64,000 nt of DNA from the NCBI GenBank assembly GCA_016218105.1, contig JACRET010000001.1:1262-65261 (forward strand), in the 5' to 3' direction. Every line of letters starts with the position of its first letter. Positions within the stretch are counted from its first letter, which is position 1. Positions 20,912 through 26,627 of the stretch are shown here, one piece after another. The notes beneath the pieces were generated by a model that did not search any database, was not told the DNA's origin, and was given only the letters and a program-made list of their open reading frames with translations. The translations under genes and the position numbers were made by a program. The DNA is from Deltaproteobacteria bacterium. GTDB lineage: Bacteria > Desulfobacterota > GWC2-55-46.

Positions 20912-21117
20912 ATCGGCACTAATTGTTATTTATAAACTTTTTTTTGTTGGATTTCAAATAGATTTTGGATTCAGGGTCATATTAACAGAATTGGATTAAA
21001 AACTTATTAAGATTAAATTACTTAATTTTTAAGTAACCGGGCCTGACTTCTCCTGTTTTCGAGAGAAAACGAGAAAAGGCCGTGATCCTTAATTTCGGGA
21101 AGTCAGGATGGGCAGGC

Positions 21118-21143
21118 AAAAAAAAACGGCCTTTTGGGGCCGC
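21118..21143 (-). terminator. Probable intrinsic terminator after rnfB
   Basis: Minus strand GCGGCCCCAAAAGGCCG followed by a T-run. Confidence 0.6.
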
Positions 21144-21207
21144 TTTGCGCTGTAAAGCAAATCTGTTTTATAAAGGCGTGAACCAGGCTTTAGACCGGTG
21201 GTGTCAT

Positions 21208-22062
21208 TTACCCTGTCTTTTTTGGCTGTGAGGCGTAAAAAGCGGCCTTTGTGACCTTTTCCTCGATCCCCGAAAGTATGCACTTTGTCGGGCAGCGCTT
21301 TACGGACTCGTCGTTCTGAGGGGCAAGCCCATAATTCACCACTGCAAGGTTGTCCTTTAACGCTATGCCGCCGGGCACCGAGCAGTCCTTTACGCAGAGC
21401 CCGCAGGCTATGCAGGAGACCTTGCAGACCTTTTTGGCGTGCGCCCCCTTGTCCTTGCTCTTGCAATATACGAACAGCTTATGGTCTTCCGGGTGCATCT
21501 CGATTATATCTCTCGGGCATGCCCTCGCGCACGCTCCGCAACCTACGCACTTATCAAAAAATACCACCGGCAGCCCGTTGGCGTTCATCGCCATCGCGTC
21601 GAATTTGCAGGCATCCACGCACTCGCCGTAACCGAGGCACCCGTACGTGCAGCTCTTGTCCCCGCCGGTAAGGTTTGCCGCGGTACAGGTCATCTCTCCC
21701 CTGTACTGTGCCCTGCGCTCCGCCTCAGCCGTGCCGCCCTTACAAAGGACGACGGCTACCTTCCTCTTGTGCTCTGACGCGTCAGCGCCTAGTAAAGCCG
21801 CGAGCGCCTTTGCGGTATCGCTGCCGCCAGCCACGCAGGCGTTCGAAGGCGCTGTGCCCGCAAGAAGGGCTTCGGCAAGCATCCTGCAGCCGGGATATCC
21901 GCAGCCGCCGCAGTTCGTGTTAGGGAGTATCCCGGCTATCGCCTCTATGCGCGGGTCTTCCTCCACCCTCAGCTTTTTATCCGCGAAGGCAAGGAATATC
22001 GAGAGAGCGGCGCCAAGGCCTCCCATGCTTACGGCTGATATTATGAGCGAAGCGGCTGTCAT
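21208..22062 (-). CDS. rnfB: Rnf electron transport complex subunit B
   Basis: LPNTNCGGCGYPGC, CTYGCLGYGEC..C, CVGCGACARACP, CIACGLC. Confidence 0.95.
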   Translation of the reverse strand: MTAASLIISAVSMGGLGAALSIFLAFADKKLRVEEDPRIEAIAGILPNTNCGGCGYPGCRMLAEALLAGTAPSNACVAGGSDTAKALAALLGADASEHKRKVAVVLCKGGTAEAERRAQYRGEMTCTAANLTGGDKSCTYGCLGYGECVDACKFDAMAMNANGLPVVFFDKCVGCGACARACPRDIIEMHPEDHKLFVYCKSKDKGAHAKKVCKVSCIACGLCVKDCSVPGGIALKDNLAVVNYGLAPQNDESVKRCPTKCILSGIEEKVTKAAFYASQPKKTG

Positions 22063-22066
22063 TGAT

Positions 22067-22645
22067 CTATCCTCTTATAAGTCCGGCAAAACCCATGAAA
22101 GCCAGGGCCATCATGCCGGCTACTATGAGCGTTATGGAAATGCCCTGGAACGGCTTGGGAATGTCCGCGAACTCAAGCTCTTCCCTTATGCCTGACATCA
22201 TGAGTATGGCAAGTGTAAAGCCCACGCCAGTCGCGAAACCGAAGATTATCGATTCGATATAGTTATATTCCCTCAAGACCATGAAGAGCGCAAGCCCGAG
22301 GACGGCGCAATTCGTGGTGATTAGCGGCAGATATATCCCAAGCGCCCTGTAGAGGGCGGGACTGGATTTGCGTATATACATCTCGACCAGCTGGACGAGC
22401 GCGGCTATGGCGATAATGAAGGCCACGTACTCGAGGAACGGCACGTTGAACCTGACGAGCACATAAGTGTATATGGGCCACGTGACCGCGGCCGTAAGGG
22501 TCATTACAAAGGTCGTGGCAAGACCCATATTGAGCGCGTTCTCCGTCTTGTTGGATACCCCTACGAACGGGCATATGCCCAGAAAATAGGTGAGCACGAA
22601 GTTGTTGATCAGGGACGCTGATATAAAAATCATTAATAGCTTCAA
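22067..22645 (-). CDS. rnfA: Rnf complex subunit A
   Basis: NNFVLTYFLGICPF, LGIYLPLITTNCAVLG. Confidence 0.96.
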   Translation of the reverse strand: MKLLMIFISASLINNFVLTYFLGICPFVGVSNKTENALNMGLATTFVMTLTAAVTWPIYTYVLVRFNVPFLEYVAFIIAIAALVQLVEMYIRKSSPALYRALGIYLPLITTNCAVLGLALFMVLREYNYIESIIFGFATGVGFTLAILMMSGIREELEFADIPKPFQGISITLIVAGMMALAFMGFAGLIRG

Positions 22646-22655
22646 AGCAAAACTC

Positions 22656-23285
22656 CTAAGCGTTCTCTGTGCCTGCAGCTTTTCTGCTTGAGATATAATT
22701 CACGAGCGCGATGAGCGCGCCGAAGACGAGGAACGCGCCAGCCGGCAGGATCATCACTATCCAGGGTTCGAACCAGGTGTTGCTGAGTATCTTGAAGTTG
22801 AATATCGAGCCGAAGCCTAGCAGCTCCCTGATAAAGCCCATTGTCATGAGGCTCAAGGTAAATCCTATGCCGATCCCGAGCGCGTCGGCAATCGATGGAA
22901 TGACCGGGTTCTTTTGCGCGAACGCCTCGGCGCGGCCCAGGATGATGCAGTTTACGACTATACTCGGCAAATAGGGCCCAAGCGCCTTGGATATCGGCGG
23001 GAACTTGGCCGCCACAAACAAATCAGCCACGGTTACGAGGAGCGCTATGATAACGACGTACGCCGCGATCCTGACCTGCGGCGAGATATACTTTCTTACC
23101 GCCGAAATAAGGATATTCGAACCCAGGAGGACAAAGAGTGTAGCAAGACCCATCGCGACGCCGTTTATTACTGAGTTCGTAACTGCGAGGGTCGGGCATG
23201 TGCCGAGCACCAGCCTGAACGGCGGGATGTCCTGCCAAAGGCCTTTTTTAAACTCATACCAGAGTGAATAATTATTTTCCGCCAT
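22656..23285 (-). CDS. rnfE: Rnf complex subunit E
   Basis: LGTCPTLAVT, IVVNCIILGRAEAFA, LPAGAF. Confidence 0.96.
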   Translation of the reverse strand: MAENNYSLWYEFKKGLWQDIPPFRLVLGTCPTLAVTNSVINGVAMGLATLFVLLGSNILISAVRKYISPQVRIAAYVVIIALLVTVADLFVAAKFPPISKALGPYLPSIVVNCIILGRAEAFAQKNPVIPSIADALGIGIGFTLSLMTMGFIRELLGFGSIFNFKILSNTWFEPWIVMILPAGAFLVFGALIALVNYISSRKAAGTENA

Positions 23286-23928
23286 CTTTTGACTCCTTGG
23301 GCTCCGCGCTCTCCGGGGCCTTTACAGCCGAAGCCGGTTTCGCCTCGAAAGCCGCGAGACCGTCTTTGGGGAACTCCCTTAAGACCTTCTGGACGGCATT
23401 GTTTATGTTCTTGACGACCGCGTCCGACGAGATAGTCGCGCCTGTGATGGACTGGATCTGGTTCGGCTTCTCGGGCTTCCGGTTCTTTATGTACTCTACC
23501 TTCGGGGTTATGTCGATGCCTTTGAACTGGTTCTCGAATTCAGGCTCGCTTATCCTGTTTCCAAGGCCTGGAGTCTCGACCTGGTCAAGTATCTTTATGC
23601 CTTTGAGCTTTAGATAATCAAGCCCCAGGCCTACCATGACCCCGATATTCCCCTGGAAACCGCCGCCGTCCGCCTTGAAAGCAAGCCCGACAGGCTTTCC
23701 TTCCCCGTCAATGCCTTCATACACGACTATCGTCTCCTGCCCAACCTTCTTCTCAAGGAGCTTGTAATCCTTCGCCTCGGGGAGGACGACGAAAATGGCC
23801 TCCTTGAGCTCCTTTTCCTTGTTGGCCTGTATCATCGGGTCGGCGACCTGGAAGACCCCGGCGAGTATTACGCCCGATATCGCGCCCACAAGCGTGAGGT
23901 TCAGAAACATTTTTGTTACATTATTCAA
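23272..23928 (-). CDS. rnfG: Rnf complex subunit G (FMN-binding)
   Basis: ETPGLG and ITGATISS flavinylation motif. Confidence 0.95.
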   Translation of the reverse strand: MNNVTKMFLNLTLVGAISGVILAGVFQVADPMIQANKEKELKEAIFVVLPEAKDYKLLEKKVGQETIVVYEGIDGEGKPVGLAFKADGGGFQGNIGVMVGLGLDYLKLKGIKILDQVETPGLGNRISEPEFENQFKGIDITPKVEYIKNRKPEKPNQIQSITGATISSDAVVKNINNAVQKVLREFPKDGLAAFEAKPASAVKAPESAEPKESKDGGK

Positions 23929-23958
23929 GAGTAAAACCCCTCCGGAAACTTAACTTGA

Positions 23959-24987
23959 TTACTGTCCTGCCTTAAGCCCGTTCGCGCCGAACACCCTCGG
24001 CCGCGTGTGTTTATTGAGGAGCGGCACGAACGCGTTCATAAAGAGTATGGAGTACATGACGCCTTCCGGCAGACCGCCGAAGAGCCTGATTACCACAGCC
24101 ATTATCCCGCCCAGTATCGCGAATATCCACTGTCCGGTATCCGTAGTAGGGGATGTTACCATGTCAGTGACCATGAACCACGCCCCTAGCATCGCGCCTC
24201 CGGCGCAGAGATGGAAAAGCGGGCTGGGATATTTCACGGGGTCGATAAACCAGAATATCGCGGAGAAGGCCGCCATTGATCCAAGATAGCCGAGCGGCAG
24301 CTTCCAGTTGACGTAGCCTTTATAACGGAGATAAAGCCCTCCGATGATTATGGCGATAACCGAGGTCTCGCCAAGCGACCCGGCGACGTTACCCGTGAAG
24401 AGGTCCATTATAGGCGTCGCCTTGCCCTCGAACTTCATCAAGGCCAGCGGTGTGGCCGCCGATACCGCGTCTACCGCCTTTTGTATCGTCCTCGGCTCTA
24501 CCCATGTGGTCGTAAGAACCGGGTAGGTAGCCATCAAAAACGCCCTTCCAAGGAGAGCGGGGTTGAATATATTGAATCCCAGTCCGCCGAAGAGCTGTTT
24601 GCCTATGCCTATCGCGAAGACCGAGCCGAGTATCGTTCCGAATACCGGGAACCCCGGAGGAAGGGTCATCGCAAGGAGTATGCCTGTTATAATGGCGCTG
24701 CCGTCATAGATTTTTATAGGCCTGCCGCGGTATTTCTGGAATGCGTATTCGGTAATGAGGCATGTGCCGATCGCTATCACGTAAAGGAGAAGCGCCCTGA
24801 AACCGAAAAAATATACAGATGCGGCCATCGCCGGAAAGAGCGCCATCACGACCGTGTGCATGATCTTCGGTACGGACTCGTTCTTCAGGAAATGCGGTGA
24901 CGATGTCACGAAGAGCTTCCCGCTCCCGCTCCCGCCTTCGGGCATAGAGGCCTTTATCTCTTTTTTGTCGAGCGTCTTATCTTCCAT
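23959..24987 (-). CDS. rnfD: Rnf complex subunit D
   Basis: SSPH, KQLFGGLGFNIFNPA, SAATPL flavinylation site, TDMVTSP, PEGVMYSIL. Confidence 0.96.
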   Translation of the reverse strand: MEDKTLDKKEIKASMPEGGSGSGKLFVTSSPHFLKNESVPKIMHTVVMALFPAMAASVYFFGFRALLLYVIAIGTCLITEYAFQKYRGRPIKIYDGSAIITGILLAMTLPPGFPVFGTILGSVFAIGIGKQLFGGLGFNIFNPALLGRAFLMATYPVLTTTWVEPRTIQKAVDAVSAATPLALMKFEGKATPIMDLFTGNVAGSLGETSVIAIIIGGLYLRYKGYVNWKLPLGYLGSMAAFSAIFWFIDPVKYPSPLFHLCAGGAMLGAWFMVTDMVTSPTTDTGQWIFAILGGIMAVVIRLFGGLPEGVMYSILFMNAFVPLLNKHTRPRVFGANGLKAGQ

Positions 24988-25048
24988 GATAAACTCTATA
25001 ATCCCTTTTTTAAAGCCGGCTGTTCATCCCAGGGCTTAAGCCCTGGGG

Positions 25049-26377
25049 TCATTTGGACGAGGCACGCTGCGCCTCTTTACGGACAAAGTACTTGCCCACC
25101 CTTATCCACTGAAGGAGCGGCCTCTTGGCCGGGCATACGTATGAACAGCAGCCGCATTCTATGCAGGCTCCAGCGTCCCAGCCCTTGAAATTATCGAGCA
25201 TCTTGGCCTTGCCGTAGTCTCCCAGCCTGTAGGGCATAAGGCCCATGGGGCAGGCGTGGACGCAGCTGGCGCATTTGATGCAAGGGTCGTATCCTTCGGG
25301 TTTGATGGCGCCGGCGTCTATTACCGTGATGCCTGATGTGCCCTTAATGACAGGCGCTGTCAGGGATGACTGGGCTATACCCATCATGGGGCCGCCGTTC
25401 AAAACTTCTTTTTCGCCCTCGCCTGTCAGACCGCCGCACTGGTTTATTACTTCCTCAAAGCTTGTGCCTATGCGCACCCTCAGATTGCGCGGGTCTCTCA
25501 CACCGTTGCCGCTTATGGTGACGATCCTCTCTATAAGAGGCTTTTTATAGACAAGTGCCTCGTAAATAGCGGCGGCCGTGCCGACGTTATTGACCACAAC
25601 ACCTACATCCAGGGGTAATTTTCCAGGGGGGACTTTTCTGTTAAGGGCGGCCTTGATGAGCATCTTCTCGGCGCCCTGCGGATACTTTGCTTCCAGGATT
25701 ATTATCTGAACGTCCGATAAGCCGATCGATTTTTTCAAGGCCTCGATCGCGTCAGGCTTATTCTCTTCTATGCCGATAAAGCCTTTAGTAGCGCCCGTAG
25801 CCCTCATAAGCGCCCTCAGGCCCCAGACTACCTTTTCAGACTCTTCTACCATTATCCTGTGGTCGGCCGTAAGGTAAGGCTCGCACTCGCATCCGTTCAA
25901 GATAATGGCGTCAATCGCCTTGCCTTTGGGTGGGGCGAGCTTTACGGAGGTCGGGAATGCCGCTCCGCCCATGCCGACGATGCCTGCGTCGCGCACCAGT
26001 TCGCGGATGGATTCGGGCGACTGTGAATTTAAATCCACAGTCCCCTCCGCCTTCCACTCACGGGTGGTCCCATCGCCCTCTATGACGACCGCCAATACCC
26101 TGGCGCCACCGGGGTGCTGGGCAAGCTCGATATCCTTTACCTTGCCGTTTATGGATGAATGCACCGGTGCCGAGACAAAGGCTTTTATATCGCCTATCTT
26201 CTGGCCTTCCTGTACGATGTCGCCTTTTTTAACGAGTGGTTCGCAGGGCGCGCCTGCGTGCTGCTGGAGCGGTATGGTTACGACTTTGGGAAGTGCCGCG
26301 GTTACGACACCTTTGCCGGAGGTCAGTTCTTTATAGTAAGAGGGGTGTATGCCCCTCTCGAAAGTCTTATGTCCCAT
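25049..26377 (-). CDS. rnfC: Rnf complex subunit C
   Basis: QQHAGAPC, GIVGMGGAAFP, NGCECEPYLTAD, YPQGAEK, GGPMMG, two [4Fe-4S] motifs. Confidence 0.97.
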   Translation of the reverse strand: MGHKTFERGIHPSYYKELTSGKGVVTAALPKVVTIPLQQHAGAPCEPLVKKGDIVQEGQKIGDIKAFVSAPVHSSINGKVKDIELAQHPGGARVLAVVIEGDGTTREWKAEGTVDLNSQSPESIRELVRDAGIVGMGGAAFPTSVKLAPPKGKAIDAIILNGCECEPYLTADHRIMVEESEKVVWGLRALMRATGATKGFIGIEENKPDAIEALKKSIGLSDVQIIILEAKYPQGAEKMLIKAALNRKVPPGKLPLDVGVVVNNVGTAAAIYEALVYKKPLIERIVTISGNGVRDPRNLRVRIGTSFEEVINQCGGLTGEGEKEVLNGGPMMGIAQSSLTAPVIKGTSGITVIDAGAIKPEGYDPCIKCASCVHACPMGLMPYRLGDYGKAKMLDNFKGWDAGACIECGCCSYVCPAKRPLLQWIRVGKYFVRKEAQRASSK

Positions 26378-26446
26378 AAAATTCCAAAACTAAGGATTTT
26401 ATTTAATTTCCAAAAGCAAAAGCTGCTTACCAAGGGAGCGAGAGAC

Positions 26447-26512
26447 AAAAAAAAAAGACCGTCACGGCAATACACTTACAGTTTTTAGCTGCAGGTATTC
26501 GCCCAGACGGTC
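26447..26512 (-). terminator. Riboswitch expression-platform intrinsic terminator
   Basis: RNA GACCGUCUGGGCGAAUAC...GUAUUGCCGUGACGGUC followed by a U-run; 5' arm overlaps the aptamer 3' end. Confidence 0.9.
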
Positions 26513-26580
26513 GGCAGTTACTCTATAATCTCTCGATCCCCGGTGGTAGCCACCTTGATTCCGTCAGTCACGAAAGATAT
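26500..26580 (-). ncRNA. ZMP/ZTP riboswitch (pfl motif) aptamer upstream of rnfC
   Basis: AUCUUUCG-UGACUGACGGAA-UCAA-GGUGGCUACCACC-GGGGAU-CGAGAGAU...UGCCGACCGUCUGGGCG: P1 AUCUUUCG/CGAGAGAU, P2 GGUGG/CCACC, pseudoknot GACGG/CCGUC. Confidence 0.93.
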
Positions 26581-26597
26581 TTGTTACCTATAGAGAC

Positions 26598-26627
26598 ACT
26601 ATAATTCATAGAGCGCCTGCTTGTCAA
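26598..26627 (-). promoter_or_regulatory. Sigma70-type promoter for the riboswitch-rnf leader
   Basis: TTGACA (26627-26622), 18-bp spacer, TATAGT (26603-26598) just upstream of the aptamer. Confidence 0.65.

Follow-up and report, generated by a model that had tools for sequence, protein, structure and literature searches.

The rnf leader and its operon

The window analysed here (the whole 64,000-nt stretch of contig JACRET010000001.1 from a Deltaproteobacteria bacterium) carries, on its minus strand, an RNA element of the ZMP/ZTP riboswitch class upstream of a complete rnfCDGEAB operon. We consider it highly probable that this element is a genuine ZMP/ZTP-class riboswitch working as a transcriptional ON switch for the self-contained operon. 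The reading is based on a covariance model match, a terminator with the pseudoknot strand as its 5' arm, the conservation of this design in all 33 leaders compared and covariation in helix P1. Sequence and comparison establish that aptamer and terminator are present and mutually exclusive, that the operon follows them and that the arrangement is conserved. From the riboswitch family we infer that the ligand would be ZMP/ZTP and that the direction of the switch would be ON.

The Rfam model of the ZMP-ZTP family (RF01750) matched window positions 26581-26494 on the minus strand with 56.4 bits, compared with a gathering score of 39 (E = 1.7e-6). The match was full length (model positions 1-86 of 86) and was the sole Rfam match at gathering score within the 64-kb window. 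A search of the whole genome (hereafter G000) recovered it again (E = 1.8e-8). A first-pass annotation, made from the letters of the window, had described a near-canonical aptamer with an intact pseudoknot, and the model search bears this out. The strings it quoted, UGACUGACGGAA, GGUGG/CCACC and GCCGACCGUCUGGGC, are all present, and the pseudoknot consists of five Watson-Crick pairs between GACGG (26565-26561) and CCGUC (26510-26506). The aptamer, a pfl motif with P1, P2, P3 and the pseudoknot, is thus placed at 26494-26581 (-) by the RF01750 match, and P1 is additionally backed by covariation.

The known ZMP/ZTP switches used for comparison were the pfl-associated ones of Thermosinus carboxydivorans, Clostridium beijerinckii and Fusobacterium ulcerans. 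As in these, the P1/P2 and P3 subdomains of the rnf leader are joined by the pseudoknot. Unlike the Rfam consensus, the pseudoknot has an A-U pair in place of a G-C pair. This change is found in all 32 distinct rnf leaders, and since it is compensated on both strands, it should be structurally neutral. According to PMC2864571 and PMC7266159, published ZTP associations comprise purH, fhs, pfl, glyA, folD and other purine or folate genes. No such purine or one-carbon gene is associated with the aptamer at the rnf locus. Since such genes are usual next to ZTP switches but are no part of what defines their structure, family membership is unaffected. Judged by its primary and predicted secondary structure, the rnf-leader RNA conforms to the ZTP class, and all structural features examined were found in it.

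The aptamer is preceded by a promoter-like site (called P1 as a promoter, not to be confused with helix P1) at 26627-26598 (-). It consists of TTGACA, 18 nt and TATAGT, has 11 of 12 matches and lies 16 nt upstream of the aptamer, in agreement with the sigma70-like promoter proposed earlier. The expression platform is an intrinsic terminator at 26447-26512 (-), in which a hairpin (26512-26457) is followed by ten U (26456-26447). The hairpin has a free energy of -27.7 kcal/mol and also appears in the minimum-free-energy fold. It is closed by pairing of GACCGUC (26512-26506) with GACGGUC (26463-26457), which encloses an inner stem. The stem-loop was missed by an automated terminator scan because it exceeds the size limits of that scan. 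Importantly, the 3' strand of the pseudoknot sits inside the 5' arm GACCGUC, so that aptamer and terminator are mutually exclusive. The U-run ends 70 nt before the rnfC start codon (ATG at 26377), where the first-pass annotation had placed an overlapping terminator at about this distance. The 69-nt spacer between U-run and ATG (26378-26446, -) was searched for a promoter-like site in G000 and none was found; an independent promoter at this place had been named as an observation that would speak against the riboswitch.

The overlap of the terminator with the 3' pseudoknot strand follows the ON-switch logic of known ZMP/ZTP switches. PMC2864571 describes terminators overlapping the 3' part of many pfl RNAs, and PMC7337938 a pseudoknot-containing ZTP riboswitch that switches transcription on. 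At the rnf locus, transcription would begin at the promoter-like site 26627-26598. In the absence of ligand, GACCGUC would pair with GACGGUC, and the resulting hairpin with its ten U would stop transcription 70 nt before rnfC. With ZMP/ZTP bound, CCGUC would be kept in the pseudoknot with GACGG and the terminator would be blocked. RNA polymerase could then read through into rnfC-D-G-E-A-B.

All six genes lie on the minus strand, and each was above the cut-off of its own NCBIfam Rnf subunit model, which agrees with the complete operon claimed earlier. The first gene, rnfC (25049-26377, 442 aa), matched TIGR01945 with 516.5 bits (cut-off 246) and is followed by rnfD (23959-24987, 342 aa; TIGR01946, 334 bits, cut-off 207) and rnfG (23272-23928, 218 aa; TIGR01947, 106.4 bits, cut-off 102). 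Next are rnfE (22656-23285, 209 aa; TIGR01948, 224.9 bits, cut-off 213.4) and rnfA (22067-22645, 192 aa; TIGR01943, 258.7 bits, cut-off 229.3). The last gene, rnfB (21208-22062, 284 aa), is of the polyferredoxin type and matched TIGR01944 with 113.7 bits (cut-off 68.7) and NF005503 with 225 bits. As in other Rnf/Rsx complexes of the rnfABCDGE type, all six subunits are encoded together. The gene order C-D-G-E-A-B is common in anaerobes. A terminator-like site at 21115-21146 (-), with a 9-pair stem (21146-21123) followed by a T-run, lies 62 nt past the rnfB stop codon and would close the operon. Just downstream of it, at 20911-19923 (-), the window contains a gene for a CYCXC-family (seleno)protein (NF041379, 124 bits) and an overlapping gene for a TPR protein.

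Unlike the targets of published ZTP switches, the target here is predicted from its genes to be a six-gene ion-translocating ferredoxin:NAD+ oxidoreductase. Known regulation of rnf/rsx genes is protein-based, for instance with nitrogen-fixation regulators in Rhodobacter and a SoxR link in Escherichia coli. The first-pass annotation knew of no described ZTP-rnf regulon, and no paper linking ZTP to rnf was found in the full-text literature, a scope outside which supplementary tables and most subscription journals fall. Papers examined that mention both riboswitches and the Rnf complex likewise did not link the two.

Conservation of the leader among relatives

G000 belongs to a class of uncultured groundwater bacteria. 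G000 and 60 relatives of the same order were searched with RF01750 and for RnfC, and the coordinates were cross-matched. Of the 32 genomes with RnfC in the family of G000 (f1), G000 included, 29 have a ZTP aptamer on the strand of rnfC, at a distance of 84-325 nt upstream of this gene. The same position was occupied in the sister families f5 (1 of 1 genomes) and f8 (3 of 7). A survey of 96 genomes of the class, 70 of which contained ZTP matches, added three further cases: G071 in f8, and G093 and G094 in f14, a family of a different order from that of G000. Hence, tabulating rnfC across genomes, as had been proposed, gave an aptamer upstream of this gene in 36 genomes of the class. In terms of gene position, the linkage of ZTP aptamer and rnfC is beyond chance.

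RnfC was also searched over the genomes of 185,579 species, and the best 80 of at least 594 relatives were examined. ZTP was present at three of these 80 loci, all belonging to close relatives with an RnfC identity of 75-82%. The other 77 of the best 80 loci (Nitrospirota, Bacillota, Ignavibacteria, acetogens and others) had no ZTP.

The leader of G000 was aligned with the rnf leaders of 32 relatives (L173-L204), giving 33 leaders, of which 32 were distinct. In 33 of 33 leaders, the 5' arm of the terminator is the pseudoknot strand (GA)CCGUC, which pairs with G(A/G)CGG just before the U-run. The leaders of G093 and G071 have the same terminator design. When the Rfam architecture was laid on the alignment, 87.5% of the cells were paired, compared with 38-50% when the 3' partners were slid. 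Ten pairs vary on both sides, eight in P1 and two in P3, and the covariation observed was reached by 0 of 500 shuffles. The changes in P1 include columns 10-62 (CG in 18 leaders, UA in 10) and columns 12-60 (CG 13, UA 11, UG 6). The relatedness of the leaders inflates these covariation statistics, but the compensatory changes in P1 are plain nonetheless. P2 is invariant across the leaders and is therefore uninformative for covariation. Four of the five pseudoknot pairs are invariant in the 32 distinct leaders. A single cell of the fifth pair is unpaired, and the pseudoknot as a whole is 99.4% paired. Taken together with the model match and the overlap of terminator and pseudoknot, the conserved design and the P1 covariation uphold the ON switch by antitermination of the first-pass annotation, as far as sequence goes.

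Two further loci deserve mention. The rnf-associated aptamer of G094 (L242) is weak (44.9 bits), the 5' strand of its pseudoknot is degenerate and its terminator is much longer. The rnf switch of this genome may be in decay. Upstream of rnfC in G039, a long inverted repeat (L210:30-225) gave sub-gathering matches to eukaryotic microRNA precursor models (best 65.7 compared with 117 bits); it is probably a palindromic element and not a microRNA.

Several observations weigh against the ON-switch reading. The rnfG gene clears its cut-off only narrowly (106.4 and 102 bits, respectively), and G000 is a metagenome bin with an estimated contamination of 5.78%. No aptamer was found before rnfC in the families f2, f3, f4, f6 and f7 (0 of 14 genomes with RnfC). 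Within f1, G008 and G014 have rnfC without an aptamer, even at E ≤ 1. The misses in f1 and in the five families indicate that the ZTP-rnf link is dispensable. The third f1 genome without a match (G005) is uninformative, as its contig ends 88 nt upstream of rnfC. A sensitive Rfam scan (E ≤ 1) upstream of rnfC in G005, G008, G014, G043, G051, G039, G060 and G037 detected no ZTP. Moreover, an element of the form TTGA[CT]-N15-16-TAGTAT(CA) is conserved between terminator and rnfC in 20 of the 33 leaders. Its distance from the rnfC start codon is 42-56 nt, except for two leaders with 74 and 86 nt.

This element raises the question of a main promoter downstream of the terminator. In that case the riboswitch would have little effect on rnf, and the leader would only terminate or tune transcription arriving from upstream. 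In addition to the element in 20 of the 33 leaders, canonically spaced promoter-like sites past the terminator speak for this explanation, but they occur in only 4 of 33 leaders and their positions are inconsistent. By the same criteria, a dedicated site (TTGACA-17/18-TAnnAT) precedes the aptamer by 8-32 nt in 29 of 33 leaders. Neither G000 nor any other member of its genus, g1 (G000-G004), has the element. Nor does its spacing (k = 16) agree with the one preferred across the G000 genome, in which TTGAC-k-TAnnAT is most frequent at k = 18 (88 sites, compared with 13 at k = 16). Finally, aptamer and terminator have been kept, with covariation, before rnfC across two orders, which is hard to explain without a function. 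A dominant downstream promoter is thus very unlikely in our view. The element itself could represent a promoter, weak or specialised and with a spacer shorter than usual, or else an operator or other protein-binding site. Where it is a promoter in relatives, control by the riboswitch may be additive and not exclusive.

ZTP sites across the class and the phylum

The rnf leader is not the only ZTP site of G000. Five sites were found in this genome (rnf and four others), none of them before a canonical target. On contig C42 (45243-38642, L167), the aptamer precedes a gene for a monomeric NADP-dependent isocitrate dehydrogenase (icd), which is followed by two more genes, AclB-like and AclA-like (903 aa), with gaps of 49 and 34 nt. 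AclB-like and AclA-like proteins together represent ATP-citrate lyase. On contig C84 (12336-6877, L168), the first gene encodes a class-V aminotransferase; it directly abuts serA (660 bits), and hisZ and purA follow. The 3.6-kb contig C68 (L002) carries a second copy of the aminotransferase gene, with a protein 93% identical to the C84 copy. The DNA of the two copies has diverged, megablast aligned the aptamer region only, and the second copy could be either a paralogue or a sequence from a co-binned relative. The remaining site, on contig C2 (138130-139776, L169), precedes the gene for a 514-aa CPA2-type cation/proton exchanger.

No canonical SerC was found in G000, and the SerC model matched only the two ZTP-controlled aminotransferases. 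Because of this and the adjacency to serA, the ZTP-controlled class-V aminotransferase is probably a phosphoserine aminotransferase.

The first downstream gene was classified for 102 non-rnf sites of the class above the gathering score (76 + 26), with the four sites of G000 kept separate. Four sub-gathering matches (G014:C175, G008:C88, G009:C5 and G027:C112) were excluded from this tally. Monomeric isocitrate dehydrogenase was the commonest target (48), followed by class-V aminotransferase (22), AclB-like proteins (9, in family f8), SucC (5) and CPA2 exchangers (5). PntA, the alpha subunit of the proton-translocating NAD(P) transhydrogenase, was found twice, in family f14 (L224 in G088 and L228 in G095). 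A dimeric-type NADP-dependent isocitrate dehydrogenase replaced the monomeric type once (L219 in G090), and a Kup K+ transporter occurred once, also in G090. Nine sites were left unclassified, mostly at contig ends (L123, L125, L131, L142, L158 and L226 among them).

Accordingly, the targets within the class differ from those of published ZTP switches not only in rnf but also in icd, aclBA, sucC, pntA and the cation transporters. The gene neighbourhoods suggest that rnf is one arm of a class-specific ZTP regulon comprising steps of the tricarboxylic acid (TCA) or reverse-TCA cycle, two ion-coupled redox converters, serine synthesis and cation transporters. The first-pass annotation had treated rnf as a single locus responding to one-carbon shortage. 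The part of this that stood is rnf under a ZTP aptamer; what changed is the frame, as the locus now appears as one arm of a non-canonical, class-wide regulon, which points to a role that extends to the supply of carbon and redox equivalents.

The canonical targets purH, fhs, glyA and folD, as well as gcvT, are all present in G000, and all lack an aptamer. No ZTP site was found before purH, folD, glyA or fhs among the 96 genomes of the class. This could mean that the aptamers of the class have drifted to another ligand, such as an intermediate of the purine or histidine pathway or a redox or energy metabolite, and the A-U pair that replaces the consensus G-C in the pseudoknot of all 32 distinct rnf leaders would fit such a drift. 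The matches, however, are full length at 50-68 bits, the consensus core positions are kept and the pseudoknot change is a neutral, compensatory one. Furthermore, the same type of aptamer stands before the operon of the serC-like gene, serA, hisZ and purA, which fits a ZTP logic of one-carbon supply and recycling of 5-aminoimidazole-4-carboxamide ribonucleotide. We give a change of ligand very little probability.

In the rest of the phylum, ZTP is rare. It was present in 8 of 151 evenly drawn genomes, a count that includes G000 and two other class members. The five genomes from other classes (of ~143) have one site each, with 58-64 bits. Targets outside the class were glyA (G163), fhs (G113 and G152), serA (G223) and a BenE-family transporter (G131). 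These sites belong to the same Rfam family as those of the class, but they occur once per genome and none of the five precedes rnf or a TCA gene. Because ZTP is rare and mostly canonical elsewhere in the phylum, the ZTP regulon appears to have been expanded and rewired in this class. The transporter site of G131 (L246, 63.6 bits) is an unusual target in its own right.

Within the same limits as the search for rnf, no paper in the full-text literature was found to tie ZTP to isocitrate dehydrogenase, citrate lyase, transhydrogenase or the reductive TCA cycle. The novelty would therefore lie in what the ZTP sensor controls and not in the RNA: a known sensor with what looks like an unprecedented, lineage-wide regulon.

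Metabolic setting and physiological reading

G000 encodes ferredoxin-dependent partners for an Rnf complex, namely porCDAB (pyruvate synthase) and sucD-korAB (2-oxoglutarate synthase). The marker set of the reductive TCA cycle is complete, with ATP-citrate lyase, 2-oxoglutarate:ferredoxin oxidoreductase and pyruvate:ferredoxin oxidoreductase. Among the markers examined for the electron donor, dsrA was above the cut-off in 0 of 13 genomes sampled, and the content of NiFe hydrogenase was variable, with only a 24-bit match in G000. NiFeSe-type hydrogenase large-subunit genes with one in-frame TGA were observed in G006:C49, G038:C150 and G039:C47; the TGA presumably encodes selenocysteine.

The first-pass annotation had offered two physiological rationales for rnf under one-carbon shortage. 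The gene content weakens one of them, namely that Rnf supplies reduced ferredoxin to convert CO2 to formate. No formate dehydrogenase of G000 reached the model cut-off (best 356 and 290 bits, compared with 666), and neither CdhC/acetyl-CoA synthase nor a clear Wood-Ljungdahl pathway was found in this genome. The reoxidation of NAD(P)H arising from serine, glycine and methylene-tetrahydrofolate stays viable. The formation of 10-formyl-tetrahydrofolate (10-formyl-THF) from 3-phosphoglycerate via SerA, GlyA and FolD, together with glycine cleavage, yields NADH and NADPH.

A reductive route from glyoxylate to glycine via isocitrate lyase, combining isocitrate dehydrogenase, aminotransferase and Rnf, was considered and rejected. 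G000 has no true isocitrate lyase but only a PrpB-like protein of 282 aa (40.6 bits to PF00463), for which the best NCBIfam match is methylisocitrate lyase. In addition, the aminotransferase is predicted from gene adjacency to be co-transcribed with serA.

On the distribution of targets, the alarmone for a shortage of 10-formyl-THF and purines would control a supply regulon in this class and not the one-carbon enzymes themselves. The supply regulon would consist of serine synthesis (serC-like and serA), of ferredoxin- or NADP-linked TCA or reverse-TCA steps (icd-aclBA, aclB and sucC) and of the converters Rnf and PntA. In the preferred direction, Rnf would work toward ferredoxin reduction, paid for by the ion gradient, and drain the NADH of SerA, FolD and the glycine cleavage system. 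The reduced ferredoxin would feed the carboxylations by KorAB and PorABCD. NADPH would be consumed by isocitrate dehydrogenase, with PntAB balancing the two pyridine nucleotide pools, and the cycle would be pulled along by ATP-citrate lyase and SucCD. Carbon would finally return to 3-phosphoglycerate and serine, from which formyl-THF is made, and the oxidised cofactors would be replenished. We hold this specific direction only loosely, at a probability well short of even.

A genuine citrate synthase (454 bits) is present in G000 alongside ATP-citrate lyase, and in 10 of the 13 genomes sampled, which speaks against the preferred direction. With this enzyme, the cycle could run oxidatively and Rnf could oxidise ferredoxin. 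The riboswitch would then be the same and the physiology opposite: KorAB and PorABCD would reduce ferredoxin, and Rnf would oxidise it to yield NADH and an ion gradient for ATP. Isocitrate dehydrogenase and PntAB would make NADPH, and ZTP would raise the energy and NADPH on which purine synthesis, Fhs (ATP) and the reduction of dihydrofolate (NADPH) depend. The presence of two NADP-dependent isocitrate dehydrogenase families and of PntA among the ZTP targets fits such an NADPH supply, and Fhs is encoded. ATP-citrate lyase, however, is a hallmark of the reductive cycle. It is predicted to be co-transcribed with icd behind the G000 aptamer, and it is the first ZTP-controlled gene at nine sites in f8. 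The serA-type oxidations that feed one-carbon units would also need oxidised and not reduced cofactors. An oxidative cycle is, in our assessment, unlikely but has a real share of the probability, and the gene content is compatible with either a reductive or an oxidative direction of the cycle.

More broadly, and with the probability put somewhat below even, ZMP/ZTP may be a global riboswitch-borne signal that coordinates carbon fixation and redox economy in this class. It would switch on reverse or bidirectional TCA steps, Rnf and PntAB, and serine synthesis. The steps of aclBA, sucCD and icd would be those demanding ATP, ferredoxin and NADPH, with Rnf supplying the reduced ferredoxin and PntAB the NADPH.

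The ZTP riboswitch is the textbook alarmone riboswitch, with a narrow and well-understood regulon around purines and formyl-THF. The class described here suggests that the regulon of a riboswitch can be redirected as a whole, away from the enzymes of a pathway and toward supplying carbon and reducing power. It leads to the testable hypothesis that anaerobes couple one-carbon demand to the balance of ferredoxin and NAD(P)H. It also gives a rare regulatory clue as to when and why Rnf may be needed in organisms that have not yet been grown. The natural ZTP switches, which vary in linker and terminator and have a compensated pseudoknot pair, offer material for mechanistic work. If ZMP/ZTP is indeed a global signal in this class, the class would present the first metabolite riboswitch regulon that governs both a bioenergetic membrane complex and a cycle of carbon fixation.

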